Shown here: in pieces, positions 26,890 to 38,084 of the stretch | How positions within the stretch are numbered: position 1 is the stretch's first letter | How the letters are laid out: the number at the start of each line of letters is the position of its first letter | Origin: Verrucomicrobiota bacterium | Lineage (GTDB): Bacteria > Verrucomicrobiota > Verrucomicrobiia > Limisphaerales > AAA164-E04 | Direction of reading: 5' to 3' | Length of the DNA stretch: 64,000 nucleotides | NCBI GenBank assembly: GCA_047947115.1 | Contig: CP170459.1 | Location: 1,728,001 to 1,792,000 of the forward strand | Notes under the pieces: generated by a model | Seen by the model: only the letters and a program-made list of their open reading frames with translations | The model's database searches: none | Told to the model about the DNA's origin: nothing | Translations under genes and position numbers: made by a program

Positions 26890-27270
26890 TCAGTCCCATC
26901 CGATTCGTTCGATGGTTTTTACTAGGTCAAAGTGTTTGTCGTTGCTGAGGACGGGAAGTTGATGTTGTTTTGCGAGCGCAGCGATCCAGATGTCATTTTC
27001 CGGAATGGGAGTTCCTGCTTTTTTGAGTTGGTGTCGGATAGCAGCGTAGGATCGTGTCGTTGTTTCGGTGACGTCAAGAATGCTACAGAAATTCATGAAT
27101 GCTTCGAACTGAGGTTCCACTTCTTTTTTAAGTCGCGAACCTCGCAGTCCAAATCGGTATTCACCTACCACGATGACGGGTAAGTAGATCCCCGTGACAT
27201 CATTGAGCAAATTAACGATGCCTGGATTTCCTTCCAAAAAATCAGAAAGCCCGTTGGTATCCAGAATCAT
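26890..27270 (-). CDS. vapC: PIN-domain toxin (VapC family)
   Basis: MILDTN, VVGEYRFG, GTPIPENDIWIAALA, SNDKHF. Confidence 0.95.
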   Translation of the reverse strand: MILDTNGLSDFLEGNPGIVNLLNDVTGIYLPVIVVGEYRFGLRGSRLKKEVEPQFEAFMNFCSILDVTETTTRSYAAIRHQLKKAGTPIPENDIWIAALAKQHQLPVLSNDKHFDLVKTIERIGWD

Positions 27271-27521
27271 TTCCAGGATTCCTCATCGATGCGCCCACAT
27301 TCAGATTCAATGCGCTCGAGGATTTTTTTGGTTTCGGTTCGGTGGTTTTTCAGGATACCAGCAAATTTCATCCAGGGTTTCTCCATGGACGCTTTTTGGT
27401 TCATTTTTAACTTTTCTTCGATCGCTGCGTTGATGAAAGCTCCCATCGTTTGGCCTTGTTTTGCGGCTGATATTTTCACATCGCGCAGCAAGGCGTCGGG
27501 AACTTCAAGTGTTGTTTTCAT
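27267..27521 (-). CDS. vapB: Ribbon-helix-helix antitoxin
   Basis: MKTTLEVPDALLRDVKISAAKQG; ATGA overlap with the PIN toxin. Confidence 0.85.
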   Translation of the reverse strand: MKTTLEVPDALLRDVKISAAKQGQTMGAFINAAIEEKLKMNQKASMEKPWMKFAGILKNHRTETKKILERIESECGRIDEESWK

Positions 27522-27585: not shown

Positions 27586-28570
27586 CACCTTCTGGCGAAG
27601 GCGGCTACGGGAATAGCCAGAAGGGTAGATCGTGACGTCTCGTCGCGCTCCTTGTGGCCTCCATAAGCTTGATCTGCCCGTTGTTTTGGGAAGCCGTTGA
27701 TATTCACGCTCGATGTATTCGTGTCACTGTTGATTTTGGAAGGATCAAGGTTGTCCTACGCGCCTGCGCGGCCACCTTCTGGCGAAGGCGGCTACGGGGA
27801 ATGGCCAGAAAGGTAGATCGTGACGTCTCGTCGCGTTCCTTGTGGCGTCCATAGGCTGATCTGCCCGTTGTTTTGGGGAGCCTTTGATATTCACGCTCGA
27901 TGTATTCGTGTCACTGTCGATTTTGGAAGGATCAAGGTTGTCCTGCGCGCCTGCGCGGCCACCTTCTTGCGAATGCGGCTACGGGGAATGGCCAGAAAGG
28001 TAGATCGTGACGTCCCGTCGCGTTCCTTGTGGCGTCCATAGGCTGATCTGCCCGTTGTTTTGGGGAGCCGTTGATATTCACGCTCGATGTATTCGTGTCA
28101 CTGTTGATTTTGGAAGGATCAAGGTTGTCCTACGCGCCTGCGCGGCCACCTTCTTGCGAAGGCGGCTACGGGGAATGGCCAGAAAGGTAGATCGTGACGT
28201 CTCGTCGCGTTCCTTGTGGCGTCCATAGGCTGATCTGCCTGTTGTTGTGGGAAGCCGTTGATATTCACGCTCGATGTATTCTTGTCACTGTTGATTTTGG
28301 AAGGATCAAGGTTGTCCTACGCGCCTGCGCGGCCACCTTCTGGCGAAGGCGGCTACGGGAATAGCCAGAAGGGTAGATCGTGACGTCTCGTCGCGCTCCT
28401 TGTGGCGTCCATAAGCTGATCTGCCCGTTGTTTTGGGAAGCCGTTGATATTCACGTTCGATGTATTCGTGTCACTGTTGATTTTGGAAGGATCAAGGTTG
28501 TCCTACGCGCCTGCGCGGCCACCTTCTGGCGAAGGCGGCTACGGGGCCACCTTTTTGCGAAGGCGGGTGC
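27586..28570. repeat. Tandem array of five ~187-bp units, each with two back-to-back GTAG-REP hairpins (BIME-like)
   Basis: The motif CACCTTCT(G/T)GCGAA(G/T)GCGGCTAC starts at 27586, 27773, 27960, 28147, 28334 and 28520, with a degenerate copy at 28548; the intervening sequence is nearly identical between units. Confidence 0.95.
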
Positions 28571-28639
28571 TTTGTGGCTTGATCATATGGGGGGATGTCG
28601 GTTTGCTTGGGTGGTATCGAACCCGGTCTACTACGATTT

Positions 28640-29860
28640 ATGATAACCATTGATTCATTCTATTGGCGAGTTTCTCTGACTCTGTTGTCCCTTACCGCAT
28701 TCCTTGCCTTGCACGCTGAGCCTGTTCATCAATCACAGCTTATTTTTCCATTGGAATCCTGGCACAATCATGGTTCGTGCATTGTTGAGGCTTCGAATGG
28801 GGATTTGATTGTCTGTTGGTTTCATGGTTCCGGAGAGCGAAAAGCGGATGACGTGATGATTCTGGGGGCTCGCAAAGTCAAGGGATCCGAAACATGGAGC
28901 CAGCCTTTTGTCATGGCGGATACTCCTGAGTTTCCGGACACCAATTGTTGTATGATCATTGATCCTCAGGATCGCTTGTGGTTGCTGTGGCCGACGATCC
29001 AGGCGAATCTTTGGGAGTCCGCGTTGATGAAATACAAGATTGCTTCGGATTACATGCAAAAGGATGGCCCGCCGGAATGGGAAACGGAGAAGGTCTTGCA
29101 CATCAAACCGGGTGAGGGATTCGAGGATGAAGTGCGCCAAAAGACGGCTGAGTATATGAGTCACATGGAGTTGACTCCTGGGATGATTGATTGGGCGTAT
29201 CATAATTTCCAGCAGGCGGATGACAAGCTGACACGGAGGTTGGGATGGTTCACGCGGGCGCATCCTTTTATTTCAGATGGTTCGAGAATGTTGGTTGGTC
29301 TGTATTCGGACGGGTTTTCATTTTCGTTGGTGGCCTATACAGATGACTGGGGTAAATCTTGGCGTTTCAGTGAGCCCATTGTTGGCGGGGGAAATATCCA
29401 ACCAAGTTTTGCGAGGAAACAGGACGGCACTCTTGTGACCTACATGCGTGACAATGGGCCTGCGCCGAAGCGCGTTCATGTTTCCGAGTCCGCCGACAAT
29501 GGGGTGTCATGGTCCAAGGTTTATGATCACCCCCAGCTTGTGAATCCCGGAGCAGGGTTGGAGCTGATGACATTGAAGGATGGACGGTTTTTGACCATTT
29601 ACAATGACACGGAAAGCGGACGTCACCAGTTGGCGGTTTCGATTTCGGATGACGGAGGGAAAAGTTATAAGTGGACGCGACATTTGGAGAAGCGCGAGCC
29701 TGGCGAAGGTTCTTTCCATTATCCGTCCATCATTCAGGGGAAGGATGGGATACTTCACTGTACCTACAGCTATTTCGGTCCCGGCGAGTTGAATGGCGGG
29801 GAGGGGAAATCCATCAAGTATGCGAGATTCAATCTGGATTGGGTGTTGGCGGGGGATTAA
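28640..29860 (+). CDS. BNR-repeat sialidase-family protein
   Basis: Signal peptide, HNHGSCIVE..NGDLIVCWF.GSGE, TDDWGKSW, SADNGVSW, SDDGGKSY, YPSIIQ. Confidence 0.9.
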   Translation: MITIDSFYWRVSLTLLSLTAFLALHAEPVHQSQLIFPLESWHNHGSCIVEASNGDLIVCWFHGSGERKADDVMILGARKVKGSETWSQPFVMADTPEFPDTNCCMIIDPQDRLWLLWPTIQANLWESALMKYKIASDYMQKDGPPEWETEKVLHIKPGEGFEDEVRQKTAEYMSHMELTPGMIDWAYHNFQQADDKLTRRLGWFTRAHPFISDGSRMLVGLYSDGFSFSLVAYTDDWGKSWRFSEPIVGGGNIQPSFARKQDGTLVTYMRDNGPAPKRVHVSESADNGVSWSKVYDHPQLVNPGAGLELMTLKDGRFLTIYNDTESGRHQLAVSISDDGGKSYKWTRHLEKREPGEGSFHYPSIIQGKDGILHCTYSYFGPGELNGGEGKSIKYARFNLDWVLAGD

Positions 29861-33920: not shown

Positions 33921-34745
33921 TCATGGAATCAGAAGTCGGTAAAAGACAGGTTCAGGCCCTGTGATCCATGGTTCCGAAATGGTTGTTGGTTCGTCGCCAA
34001 GCGTGATGGTTTGAATTGTTTCCCAGGACACACCATCGCGAGAAACCTGCACACTGATCTCTGAACCTGCCGTTCCTTCTGCTTGAAAGGTGAATGCTCC
34101 GTCGACCAGAGCAGGAGATGAAAGAGTCGGTGGTATCGCTGGCACTGACGCTGCTTCGATTGAATCGATGGCATTCCGGATGGTATTGATGCTTGGCCGG
34201 ATGGACTCGATATGCAGGATTTCCCATTGCTGGTGGGAGGGTGAATGATTTACGCCATTGATCACCACGAAATCCGATGCGCTGGTCCCTTCACCTCGAT
34301 TTGGAGGGAAGAACTGGTGTAGCGCCGTGTGAGCCCCGTCGTCCAGGACCAGGTCGAGGCCTGCCCGATCGGCAAAAAACAAGGAACTTCCTGTGGGCGC
34401 TCCACGATCATCTTTTTCCAGACCAATGACCTGAACGGGGATGCCGTGGGCATTGCCGCCACGTTCTTCGTAATACTGATGAATATCTTTCTCAACGACC
34501 GCTGAGTTGGCTCGGCAGGTGCCTCACCAGTAGAAAAAGAAATCCAGCAGGATGATGGACCCTTCGGCTTCGCTCAGGTTAAACGGTTCATCCGTTCTGA
34601 TATTCGTGAGTTCAAACAAGTCGGCTACTTCTCCGACACTCCTGCGAACGGATTGGGCTTGCAGGCCCGTAGCTGAGATACACACCACTGTTGCGATCGT
34701 GATTGCCAGCCATTTACCCAAAGGTTTTTTTGGTGAAATGTTCAT
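33921..34745 (-). CDS. Secreted TlpA/redoxin-like selenoprotein (UxxC) with C-terminal surface domain, 274 aa with Sec at codon 74
   Basis: ORFs 34524-34745 and 33921-34382 are one frame broken only by TGA at 34524-34526; LDFFFYW*GTC aligns with LDFFAYWCAPC of the adjacent paralog and homology continues past the stop; SECIS-like hairpin downstream. Confidence 0.88.
34491..34506 (-). promoter_or_regulatory. Candidate bacterial SECIS element
   Basis: mRNA CUCAGC-GGUC-GUUGAG 6-bp stem starting 17 nt after the UGA; GGUC apical loop like E. coli fdhF SECIS. Confidence 0.75.
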
Positions 34746-34765: not shown

Positions 34766-36412
34766 TTAAAACTTCACGTCAAATGCCGCCTGAAACAAGC
34801 CCCAATTTCTGTTTTGATAAATATCTTCGAAAAAAGGCGCGGCAATGTTTGCTTCTTCATATCGTGTCCAGTAAGGGCCAGCACTGACTCGCACACTGGA
34901 TTTTTCACCAACCCATCGCAAGCCCAGTCCCAAATGATAGCTCTTCAGTCCGGGAGGTGCATTGGAGGAAGGTAACGAGTTTTGTATCTCACCCGTGTCC
35001 TCGTAGAAGCGTCCGAAAAAACTCAGAAGCCATGATTCGCTCAAATCATGTTCCAGGGTCAGCCCGGTAAACCAGGAATTGAAACTCGGGTTTTCAGTTG
35101 CGGTAGCTGTTTGCCATCTCATGACCCAGGTTTCAGAAAGTGCCGCGTTGAGAGATCCTTGAAGGGACCAGCGCAGCTGTCGATCGGTCGTGTCTGTCAG
35201 TTGAAGCTCAAGCAGGGAACGCAGTCGCTTGGTCAGGACGTTTTCGGTTGCGATGCGATAAATGATGGAATCGATGCGGTCGCGTCCCAGGATGGTGACT
35301 CGTTCGAATTCCGCGCTGGGGGCGATATGATCACGGTAGAATCCTGCACCGGATTCAAGGTAACCTGATCCCGGCAGGTATTCCCACCGGGCCTGGGTGG
35401 ATAGTTGATAACCACGGGGATCGATTTCAGGATATCCGGCAAAAATGGGGAGGTTGCCGATCTGTTTGTAATACTCATGCAGCCATAGTGCGCGGTAGCT
35501 TTGGAATCCTTCGTAGTAACCTCCCTGCAGACGTAGTGTGAAATCGTCATTGATTTGCTGTGAAGCTCGTAGCTGACCGAGTATGCGTTCATTCCGAACA
35601 TTCATGGAGGTGAAAAACGGATCCGGCGAGCGCATGTCCAAATCGAATGTTTGAATCATGAGCCCCGCATCCCATTCGGTACGGCCGTAGGTATGACCGT
35701 ATCTCATATTCCATTGTGTCAGTTGATAATCATCCGTCAGAAGCGCTTCGCCGGCTGTTTCGAATGTGCGTTCTGTCAGCAGGTTTCTTTTCGAGTCAAA
35801 TTCGGGATCATTGGGTGTTTCTGCAGATGGTGTCGCGTCTGCATGTGGTTTTTCACCGATGGCATCAATCACGGATCTCAGTTGTTCGACGCCTTCAAAT
35901 CCGGCGTGTTGATAACGAATGACGAAACCGGACTCGGAACTTGTGCCGTCCAGCACCACAATCAATGGGATCCCCTGACTCTTGAATTGTTGCAGCAAAT
36001 GCCCTTCCAGGTCCTGAATCACGTGGGAAAGACCTGCACGACGGATGAACATGTCCGTCCGTCGAGGATTGGCGGACTCGACATTCACTGCGATCAATTC
36101 CACCGGGATCCCATGAGGGTTGCCTTCTTGGGAGGCGTAATAGGAGGCGATTTCGTTTTCCAGAATTGGGGACGTGCGGGCGCAAGGGGCGCACCAATAG
36201 GCAAAGAAATCCAGCACGATGATTTTCTCCTGATGTTGTTCAAAGGAAAATGTTTTCCCCGGGGAAGGAAGGAGCTCGGGTAAGTTGAGGTTGGAGAAAT
36301 CAAGGGCCACCTTCTGGCGAAGGCGGCTACTGGGGGTTGCGCTGTGGACGGGCCCGGTTGATAGCAAACTTACCAGGCACATTACGACCAAAATGAATCT
36401 TAATGGGCGCAT
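34766..36412 (-). CDS. TlpA-like thioredoxin (WCAPC) fused to an outer-membrane beta-barrel (DUF3570-like)
   Basis: Signal peptide, LDFFAYWCAPC and GIP cis-Pro loop, Pro/acidic linker, ~330 aa of alternating aromatic beta strands ending in AAFDVKF. Confidence 0.8.
   Translation of the reverse strand: MRPLRFILVVMCLVSLLSTGPVHSATPSSRLRQKVALDFSNLNLPELLPSPGKTFSFEQHQEKIIVLDFFAYWCAPCARTSPILENEIASYYASQEGNPHGIPVELIAVNVESANPRRTDMFIRRAGLSHVIQDLEGHLLQQFKSQGIPLIVVLDGTSSESGFVIRYQHAGFEGVEQLRSVIDAIGEKPHADATPSAETPNDPEFDSKRNLLTERTFETAGEALLTDDYQLTQWNMRYGHTYGRTEWDAGLMIQTFDLDMRSPDPFFTSMNVRNERILGQLRASQQINDDFTLRLQGGYYEGFQSYRALWLHEYYKQIGNLPIFAGYPEIDPRGYQLSTQARWEYLPGSGYLESGAGFYRDHIAPSAEFERVTILGRDRIDSIIYRIATENVLTKRLRSLLELQLTDTTDRQLRWSLQGSLNAALSETWVMRWQTATATENPSFNSWFTGLTLEHDLSESWLLSFFGRFYEDTGEIQNSLPSSNAPPGLKSYHLGLGLRWVGEKSSVRVSAGPYWTRYEEANIAAPFFEDIYQNRNWGLFQAAFDVKF
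36305..36330. repeat. Exact 26-bp REP copy inside a CDS
   Basis: GGCCACCTTCTGGCGAAGGCGGCTAC is identical to array units at 27770, 28331 and 28517. Confidence 0.9.
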
Positions 36413-36646
36413 GTAGGGTGTTTACAGCATTATTGGCACGCCGTGCAACCAGCAGCTTGAGCTCCGCCTGAACCGGCCGTGCCGGGTTCGATCTGGGTGA
36501 GCACGGTGGATTGATAGGCGAATACCGGTGAATCGGAAAAGGTCATATTGTGCTTGGAAACAAGACGTTGATCCTGTAAAGGGACCGCCTTGCATCCTGA
36601 AAGGAAACCCATGGCGATCAATAACGTGATACCTGTCCAACTTTTT

Positions 36647-37994
36647 GGTTCTTCGACAAAAACAATGGAATTGAGCATTTGGAACTATCGTGAGATGATG
36701 GCTCCATGAATATTGAGAAGACCATACATGGATTGCTGGGACTAGATGAGTGTTGGGAAGTTCGAGGCGTTGACTACGATTCTGAGACGGAAAAGTTTTT
36801 CATGGTTATTACTGAAACTGACAAACTCTGGGAGAAACAAGTTTGTCCCCATCAGACCTGCAAATCGTCTGGGATTACCTGTTACGATCACACCGAAACA
36901 AGGTCTTGGCGACATATGGATGTATTTGGAAAACGATCTGAAATTCTCTGCAATGTGCCTCGCGGCAAATGCCCATCTTGTCACCGAACCTATCGGGTTA
37001 AAGTCCCCTGGGAGGGTAAGGGAAAACATTTTACTCAAGCTTTTGAAGGATTTGCATTGGCGTTGATGAGGGAGATGCCAGTTAGTAAAGCATCAGGACT
37101 GATTGGAGAGTGTGATCAACGCATGTGGCGCATTCTTTTTGCCCATGTCGACGAAGCTTATTCAAAGTTGGATATGAGTGAAGTGGTTTGGATCGGTGCG
37201 GACGAATTGTCTGCACGCAAAGGGCATGATTACCTGACGGTGTTTGCTGATTTGATGGAGAAGCGAGTCATTTTTGCCACCGAGGGCAAAGACGCTGAAA
37301 CATTCCAACGCTTTGCAGATGCGTTATATGCGCACAACGGACATCCAAAAGCGATCACTCAAGTTGCCATCGATATGAGTCCGGCCTATCAAAAGGGAGT
37401 AAGGGAGAATCTAGGCAACGCAGAGATTGTATTCGACAAGTATCATGCTGTGGCCATGGTCAATGACGCAGTCGATAAAGTGCGCAAAGCCGAAGCAAAT
37501 CAAGGAGACAAGGATTCCAAAAAGGAGCTCAAAGCAAGTCGTTGGATATTTCGTAAAAATCCCTCCAATCTAACCAAGAGTCAAACCCAGCAGCTAGAGG
37601 AATTGGATTTGAAGAATTTAGTAACCGGAATCGCCTGCCAGATGCGATTAAATTTCCAACAAGTCTATCGCAGTCGCAATGAGGTTACAGCGCGAAAAAA
37701 CATGGTCAAATGGATAGGATGGGTAAAACGAAGGGCGAAAAATTCAGGGGACTTGTTGGAACCAATGATCAAGGTGGCAAACAGTATTGAACGTCACTTG
37801 GAAGGTATACTTGCTCATTGGAAAAAGAAACTGACCACAGCGTTCATGGAAGGATTGAATAGCGTTTTCAGCGCGGTCAAGCGGAAGGCCAGAGGTTTTC
37901 GCTCATCCGTATACATGACCACTATGCTTTACTTTGTAGCCGGCAAACTCAGAATCCCGGCTTAATTTAATTCCACTGGAATTGTCGAAGAACC
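36647..37994 (+). mobile_element. ISL3-family insertion sequence
   Basis: 26-bp terminal IRs GGTTCTTCGACAA...TGGAATT (22/26), 8-bp target duplication AACTTTTT at 36639-36646 and 37995-38002. Confidence 0.95.
36706..37965 (+). CDS. ISL3 transposase
   Basis: Zn finger CPHQTC...CPSC, IGADE, IDMSPAY, FDKYH, EGLNS...KRKARGF. Confidence 0.97.
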   Translation: MNIEKTIHGLLGLDECWEVRGVDYDSETEKFFMVITETDKLWEKQVCPHQTCKSSGITCYDHTETRSWRHMDVFGKRSEILCNVPRGKCPSCHRTYRVKVPWEGKGKHFTQAFEGFALALMREMPVSKASGLIGECDQRMWRILFAHVDEAYSKLDMSEVVWIGADELSARKGHDYLTVFADLMEKRVIFATEGKDAETFQRFADALYAHNGHPKAITQVAIDMSPAYQKGVRENLGNAEIVFDKYHAVAMVNDAVDKVRKAEANQGDKDSKKELKASRWIFRKNPSNLTKSQTQQLEELDLKNLVTGIACQMRLNFQQVYRSRNEVTARKNMVKWIGWVKRRAKNSGDLLEPMIKVANSIERHLEGILAHWKKKLTTAFMEGLNSVFSAVKRKARGFRSSVYMTTMLYFVAGKLRIPA

Positions 37995-38084
37995 AACTTT
38001 TTCTTATCCAATTGGTTTTCATTGTTTTGATTTAAGCCCGAAATCGTTTAGGAGCTGAGCCGACTCCTTCCAGAGCATGCCAAC

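Follow-up and report, generated by a model that had tools for sequence, protein, structure and literature searches.

A very likely UxxC selenoprotein with a predicted TlpA/ResA-type fold, split by gene callers, in a Verrucomicrobiota bacterium

Thioredoxin-fold selenoproteins with a UxxC active site exist, as the preliminary description of the locus studied here had stated, and are an established bacterial class, exported members included. UxxC Prx-like, Redoxin and TlpA-like (cd02966) bacterial selenoproteins are catalogued in Table 1 of PMC13188914, and the GOS selenoproteins 'Prx-like 1/3' and 'Trx-like 1' appear in passages of PMC2398784. In the thioredoxin fold, the cis-proline (cis-Pro) is described in passages of PMC2757866 as more conserved than the CxxC motif and as a likely component of the site that binds polypeptides, while in peroxiredoxins a catalytic Arg stands in its place. 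A further described system is the DsbD-linked flavinylation cluster of ApbE, DUF3570 and thioredoxin-like proteins along with DUF4266, in which DsbD is often unlinked (passages of Meheust et al., 2021, PMC8238504); the main text of that paper does not mention selenocysteine (Sec). The string 'Verrucomicrob' has no match in the main text of the catalogue papers PMC13326102, PMC12013277 and PMC2398784, and the literature that we searched holds no description of the present family, although BSepDB or supplements may list single members under generic names.

The window that we analysed is a stretch of 64,000 nucleotides from a Verrucomicrobiota bacterium. Within it, positions 33921..34745 of the minus strand form one frame of 274 codons with a single internal stop, a TGA at 34526-34524. 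The residues before the stop read LDFFFYW and those after it GTCRANS, which puts the stop where a W-x-x-x-C thioredoxin motif would have its first Cys, and the upstream paralog reads LDFFAYWCAPC at the equivalent place. The homologous column is Cys in 145/145 Cys representatives (a comparison set of 145 of the 150 listed). Standard gene calling yields two ORFs here, of 73 aa and 153 aa, and the downstream piece alone is present in public protein sets (P0002-P0008). The preliminary description had read these two ORFs as one frame split only by TGA, with the stop exactly on the nucleophilic Cys, in a gene that annotation would divide; retranslation, alignment and gene calling bear out each of these points. 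Read through, the 274-aa product would combine a signal-peptide-like N-terminus, a TlpA/ResA-fold domain and a C-terminal beta domain, with the UGA (34524..34526, minus strand) as predicted Sec74 at the first position of UxxC, on translation and alignments, and Cys77 (34515-34517, minus strand) as the resolving residue. The codon at 34524-34526 is without change among the variants listed in 4/4 independent public runs, compared as contigs, although the source sample itself could be among them as one of the DNA runs; contigs from RNA runs cannot bear on transcription. The listed run pieces across the codon carry 0, 1, 22 and 4 differences, and the region is found in metagenomes from estuary, marsh, seawater and unspecified sources.

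The interruption recurs throughout a wider family. Among the matches listed, 36 TGA genes occur in 28 genomes of the order Limisphaerales, in all 36 it is the first Cys that the stop replaces, and the alignment column of the UGA holds 36 TGA and 84 Cys rows. In the gene's own lineage, 15 genomes of its family carry 19 genes, 17 of them with TGA and two with TGC at the same codon; in both TGC relatives the frame is unbroken. The relatives with TGA and hairpin that had been called for do exist. A scan of all species genomes with the lineage alignment returned 16 loci, all at places already known, while a looser profile matched in 75/401 genomes of the order and in 3/300 others of a phylum sample. 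A metagenome scan gave 89 Cys and 1 TGA, and is uninformative on Sec frequency since its pattern required Cys; TGA-free family members are likewise biased towards Cys because databases truncate Sec genes. It is very improbable that the TGA is a true stop, in a pseudogene or between two genes, or a sequencing error: the separate database proteins made of the downstream part would fit such a stop, but the TGA sits at the catalytic position in gene after gene, two close relatives read TGC through it, and four runs retain it among the variants listed.

In phylogeny, a long branch (0.53, support 100) sets the gene's own lineage apart, and both Cys members sit within that lineage, suggesting a change from Sec to Cys, a direction described as rare in bacteria in passages of PMC13188914. 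A quick tree of the wider family requires six Sec/Cys label changes and thereby suggests several independent origins of Sec, yet a single Sec clade stays acceptable under an AU test (p 0.17), and we did not adopt that history. Several relatives have unusual architectures. In one genome (G014, L049:4193-10360, minus strand), the Sec-thioredoxin domain stands at the N-terminus of a protein of 2056 aa that also has 14 MBG_3 repeats, a candidate for a giant, adhesin-like selenoprotein. In a pair of paralogues (L054:9810-10952 and L055:8977-9711), a long Pro-Glu linker separates the thioredoxin domain from the C-terminus; TGA is present in one of them, while in the other the codon is TGC and the hairpin has decayed.

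The SECIS element of E. coli fdhF has a GGUC-containing loop. At our locus, a SECIS-like hairpin, CUCAGC-GGUC-GUUGAG, occupies 34491..34506 of the minus strand, its 6-bp stem beginning 17 nt after the UGA, as first reported, and its GGUC loop (34497-34500) 23 nt after it. The bSECIS model, as set out in passages of PMC13188914, takes a loop of 3-9 nt, a stem of 4-16 bp, a G in loop position 1-2, a distance of 16-37 nt from the UGA and an MFE of at most -7.5; the present hairpin agrees with a loop of 4 nt, a stem of 6 bp, G first, 23 nt and -10.7. That energy, in kcal/mol, is for the stretch from UGA to hairpin, and the hairpin alone gives -6.7. Against shuffles the folding is unremarkable (z +0.28 for one stretch and between -0.49 and -1.26 for the other three), and in 2/16 short stretches another fold is favoured over the stem. 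In the fold check that had been proposed, the hairpin fits the model, and its energy does not rise above shuffles; we rejected folding energy as SECIS evidence, and the case for a SECIS rests on conservation. Across 16 lineage TGA genes, 95/96 stem cells are paired, compared with 29-53% in slid controls; one stem pair is double-changed (A-U, C-G, G-C) and another varies as G-U, A-U or G-C. The four-fold degenerate third positions in the hairpin (n=4) have pairwise identities of 0.76, 1.0, 1.0 and 0.76, compared with 0.34 on average and 0.53 at most for such sites in the rest of the domain (n=43). With its synonymous sites frozen, the hairpin is under a constraint that acts on RNA, which again speaks against a true stop. 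One of the two Cys members retains the hairpin, and the other has an altered loop and a broken outer pair. Other Sec lineages have different hairpins, mostly with GGUC or GGUCA loops, and one group has a CCGUG-type. The exact 16-mer occurs once in the host genome, and a genome-wide hairpin scan returned 90 candidates, mostly noise.

The host genome (one contig, 6.08 Mb, 95.8% complete) encodes the Sec machinery that the preliminary description had proposed to look for, with selA (391 bits) adjacent to selB (302 bits, over cut-off), a selD (398 bits) itself interrupted by a single in-frame TGA, and a tRNA-Sec whose anticodon is TCA. Across the family, selA is found in 27/28 genomes with a TGA gene, the exception (G019) being 85% complete, and in 15/45 Cys-only genomes (14 over cut-off); these genomes are kin and not independent, and we attach no p value to the comparison. 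UGA-to-Trp reassignment is reported in some Verrucomicrobiota (abstract of PMC13462651), and one database protein (P0004) reads W at the codon, but we rejected such a genome-wide recoding, to which we give next to no chance: prfB is present, over cut-off, TGA terminates 931/1893 host ORFs of at least 400 aa, the sole tRNA-Trp reads CCA, the only TCA-anticodon tRNA is tRNA-Sec, and the homologous column holds Cys, not Trp. We are thus close to certain that 33921-34745 (minus strand) is a real selenoprotein gene, and UGA74 very likely encodes Sec. Two other host genes also have in-frame stops. One (L164, G000:C1:3457302, minus strand) is a known Trx7/PDZ selenoprotein, whose read-through translation matches NF041199 at 416 bits (cut-off 300). 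The other (L163, G000:C1:5559634, plus strand) is an FG-GAP-like gene with an in-frame TGA between 642 and 662 codons and a GGUCG hairpin 17 nt 3′ of it, making it a candidate selenoprotein; the 600 residues scanned have no NCBIfam match over cut-off.

The protein is predicted, on hydropathy and the structure model, to be exported via a cleaved signal peptide. The predicted signal peptide spans roughly residues 1-30 (34656..34745, minus strand), with a model helix at 10-25 and a hydropathy peak of 2.42 at residues 13-25, and no later hydrophobic segment occurs in the protein. At the other end lies a domain of about 70 aa, all-beta in the model, a candidate sorting or surface tag (33924..34133, minus strand). 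A profile of it matches 44 host proteins, of which 38 have the domain no more than 15 aa from the C-terminus, and many of the proteins bearing it are large with signal-like N-termini; reversed ORFs gave 0 matches. The domain also ends 14/17 complete Sec genes of lineages outside the profile. It has no Pfam or NCBIfam match, an Atlas search with the copy of another protein returned unnamed Verrucomicrobiota clusters, and the literature searched holds no description of it. The copies close with an F-Y/F-R motif, as in L161:925-1920 (G000:C1). Of the 'surface-type' C-terminal domain in the preliminary description, the domain itself is real and shared, while the surface role is read from its terminal position in 38 proteins. 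By analogy, it may be a sorting or surface-anchoring tag, and possibly a sorting signal of Verrucomicrobia more broadly. Stand-alone paralogues place the Sec domain ahead of a Pro-Glu linker or of about 1,900 residues of MBG repeats, an arrangement in keeping with an extracellular role.

The Sec gene is usually the last of a three-gene cassette. Its upstream neighbour (34766..36412, minus strand) encodes a CAPC thioredoxin domain, with cis-Pro kept, fused to an outer-membrane beta-barrel, and before it lies a small, distantly DUF4266-like lipoprotein gene with a C-terminal CxxC (36430..36646, minus strand), whose 5′ end is cut off by an ISL3 element of 1348 bp (36647..37994, plus strand) inside its first codons. 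The element is flanked by an 8-bp target duplication (36639-36646 and 37995-38002) and has 10 long copies in the host genome at 96.8-100% identity. Loose ends reveal an unoccupied site in 4/4 public runs, so that the insertion is probably specific to the strain. A lipoprotein gene followed by the barrel and then the exported thioredoxin is found at 13/19 lineage loci, and also at many Cys-type loci; the cassette is absent from the other 6/19. The lipoprotein's terminal CxxC is invariant, and the barrel comes without a thioredoxin domain of its own in 7/13 cassettes. An ortholog barrel, modelled at pLDDT 92, has generic OmpG/FadL-like matches at 7-12% identity. Genes for dsbD and apbE lie elsewhere in the host genome, away from the cassette, and a promoter scan found no site. 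In the surroundings, prepilin-type N-methylation (DUF1559-like) and YegS/DAG-kinase genes recur upstream of the cassette in genus g3 (L044, L045, L047, L053, L057, L059). Elsewhere in the window, 27820-28643 holds at least three near-identical repeats with 187-bp spacing, giving repeated short ORFs (MTSRRVPCG...), and 26890-27521 (minus strand) encodes, judging by translation only, a PIN-like toxin with a small antitoxin-like gene.

In the structure model (pLDDT 87, from an alignment of 18), a helix at the N-terminus is followed by a thioredoxin domain and, set apart from it, a C-terminal domain that is all-beta. The thioredoxin-fold domain, about residues 31-200 (34146..34655, minus strand), finds its best structural matches in ResA, DsbE and TlpA-type proteins (Z 16-17; Foldseek E ~1e-9), with peroxiredoxins at Z 15.5-15.9, and is predicted from the model to fold as TlpA/ResA with the N-terminal hairpin and the insertion present. 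The preliminary description had noted an apparent lack of the cis-Pro, which the alignment confirms: the column holds Ser then Asp in 18/18 lineage rows (Ser157-Asp158; 34272..34277, minus strand) and Pro in 143/145 Cys representatives. Glu110-Lys111 is likewise fixed in the lineage, at sites where Asn followed by a hydrophobic residue predominates in the others. We rejected loss of cis-Pro as a consequence of Sec, for 13/36 Sec genes retain the Pro and Pro-less Cys proteins exist. It is absent from 4/84 Cys rows, two inside the gene's own lineage and two outside, and the latter two could be basal to the Pro-less group. A sister Sec lineage, f141 (L168, L169, L172, L175), has S/A-R at the cis-Pro position, its Arg close to the position of the peroxiredoxin Arg.

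Taken together, UGA74 is very likely decoded as Sec via the hairpin, producing a UxxC oxidoreductase of predicted TlpA/ResA fold and predicted export that probably forms the outer catalytic end of a three-gene envelope relay, and we consider this reading as a whole likely; the most likely role of the gene product is that of a redox enzyme in the envelope or at the surface. In this mechanism, SelB with Sec-tRNA would almost certainly bind the GGUC loop and insert Sec74, and the signal peptide would very probably carry the protein across the inner membrane. The shared C-terminal domain would then direct it to the outer membrane or surface, a step to which we give a little better than an even chance. 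The Sec74 selenolate would, with high probability, attack the oxidised substrate, Cys77 resolving the intermediate as a selenenylsulfide. Re-reduction may draw electrons from DsbD that pass through the lipoprotein's CxxC tail and the beta-barrel, an assignment that we make tentatively.

For the substrate, we lean towards a small oxidant (a peroxide or small disulfide) over a folded protein, at somewhat short of even chances. The lean follows from the replacement of the cis-Pro and the usual Asn and hydrophobic residue by Ser-Asp and Glu-Lys, given that passages of PMC2757866 link the cis-Pro to polypeptide binding and note its replacement in peroxiredoxins. The protein could instead be an ordinary periplasmic protein-disulfide reductase or isomerase selenoprotein, TlpA/ResA-like and helping to fold or repair exported partners, for instance the barrel or the lipoprotein, in which Ser-Asp only tunes the active site. 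ResA, DsbE and TlpA-type proteins are indeed its best structural matches, Sec and the resolving Cys are both retained in 18/18 lineage rows, and over a third of the Sec members (13/36) keep the cis-Pro; this reading is possible but somewhat doubtful to us, as the polypeptide-binding residue (passages of PMC2757866) is lost lineage-wide on the long, fully supported branch, and peroxiredoxin folds score nearly as well. The same loss could also suit metal or metalloid handling at the U-x-x-C, feeding the barrel as an uptake or detoxification module, for cis-Pro may prevent metal binding by CxxC (passages of PMC2757866, citing Su et al., 2007), E110, K111 and D158 are new and invariant, and the barrel resembles substrate channels. 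Yet across the 21 loci mapped, genes for transporters or for metal resistance do not recur next to the cassette, and the barrel matches are generic, so that we regard metal handling as improbable.

Beyond an envelope oxidoreductase acting on small oxidants, a bolder and rather unlikely extension is that lipoprotein, barrel and Sec-thioredoxin together form an undescribed thiol/selenol conduit that brings reducing power across the outer membrane of Verrucomicrobia, leading to a surface selenoenzyme sorted by a phylum-specific C-terminal domain; in this lineage, Sec and the loss of cis-Pro would have converted a protein-disulfide reductase to a different chemistry, and the family may have gained Sec repeatedly, with different hairpins. 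Whichever chemistry applies, the locus adds a selenoprotein family that is split by gene callers and missed by the curated models searched. The family offers natural pairs of Sec and Cys and of Pro and non-Pro members, including the two Cys members nested among Sec genes, and hence one scaffold for two questions, what benefit Sec brings to a thioredoxin and what purpose the cis-proline serves. In addition, it draws attention to a redox cassette of the envelope that lacks annotation and to a C-terminal domain of Verrucomicrobia that has no name.

How does this locus compare with described systems? With the DUF3570/DUF4266/ApbE cluster, as presented in passages of PMC8238504, the cassette shares a small secreted protein bearing C-terminal cysteines, a thioredoxin, a partner of about 400 aa and an unlinked DsbD, but its lipoprotein ends in CxxC, not CxC. 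The lipoprotein's match to DUF4266 is under cut-off (E 0.02, 16 bits vs 27, positions 5-47 of 50, in 2/31 members), a search of the host genome found no DUF4266, the barrel has no DUF3570 match, the flavinylation motif [S/T]GA[S/T] is absent from the window's barrel copy and the cassette holds no apbE; we therefore consider its assignment to that system unsupported. Peroxiredoxins (BCP/AhpE) share the fold class (Z ~15-16) and a replaced cis-Pro position, but the present protein has UxxC in place of their PxxxTxxC/U motif, and in its own lineage Ser-Asp, not Arg.

ResA, TlpA and DsbE (CcmG) share the fold (Z 16-17, rmsd 2.2-3.2 Å over 136-150 residues), the W-C/U-x-x-C motif and predicted export. 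They differ in that here Sec replaces the attacking Cys, Ser-Asp replaces the cis-Pro, identity is 14-21% and an extra C-terminal beta domain is present; the cis-Pro before the third core strand that is a trait of this group gives way to Ser157 in 18/18 lineage rows, and the curated cut-offs are missed (ResA 25.2 vs 170, DsbE 13.4 vs 123). All Pfam scores of the protein are likewise under cut-off (AhpC-TSA 19 vs 26), as are those of the NCBIfam selenoprotein models, of which NF041057 is the best at 12.4 bits vs 190; two other Sec lineages of the family also match no NCBIfam model at cut-off. With the catalogued UxxC Prx-like, Redoxin and TlpA selenoproteins, the protein shares the thioredoxin fold, the UxxC, an in-frame SECIS following the UGA, numerous Cys homologues and weak PF00578, PF08534 and PF00085 matches. 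Compared by table rows and passages, it differs from them in its lost cis-Pro, its shared C-terminal domain and its lipoprotein-barrel cassette.
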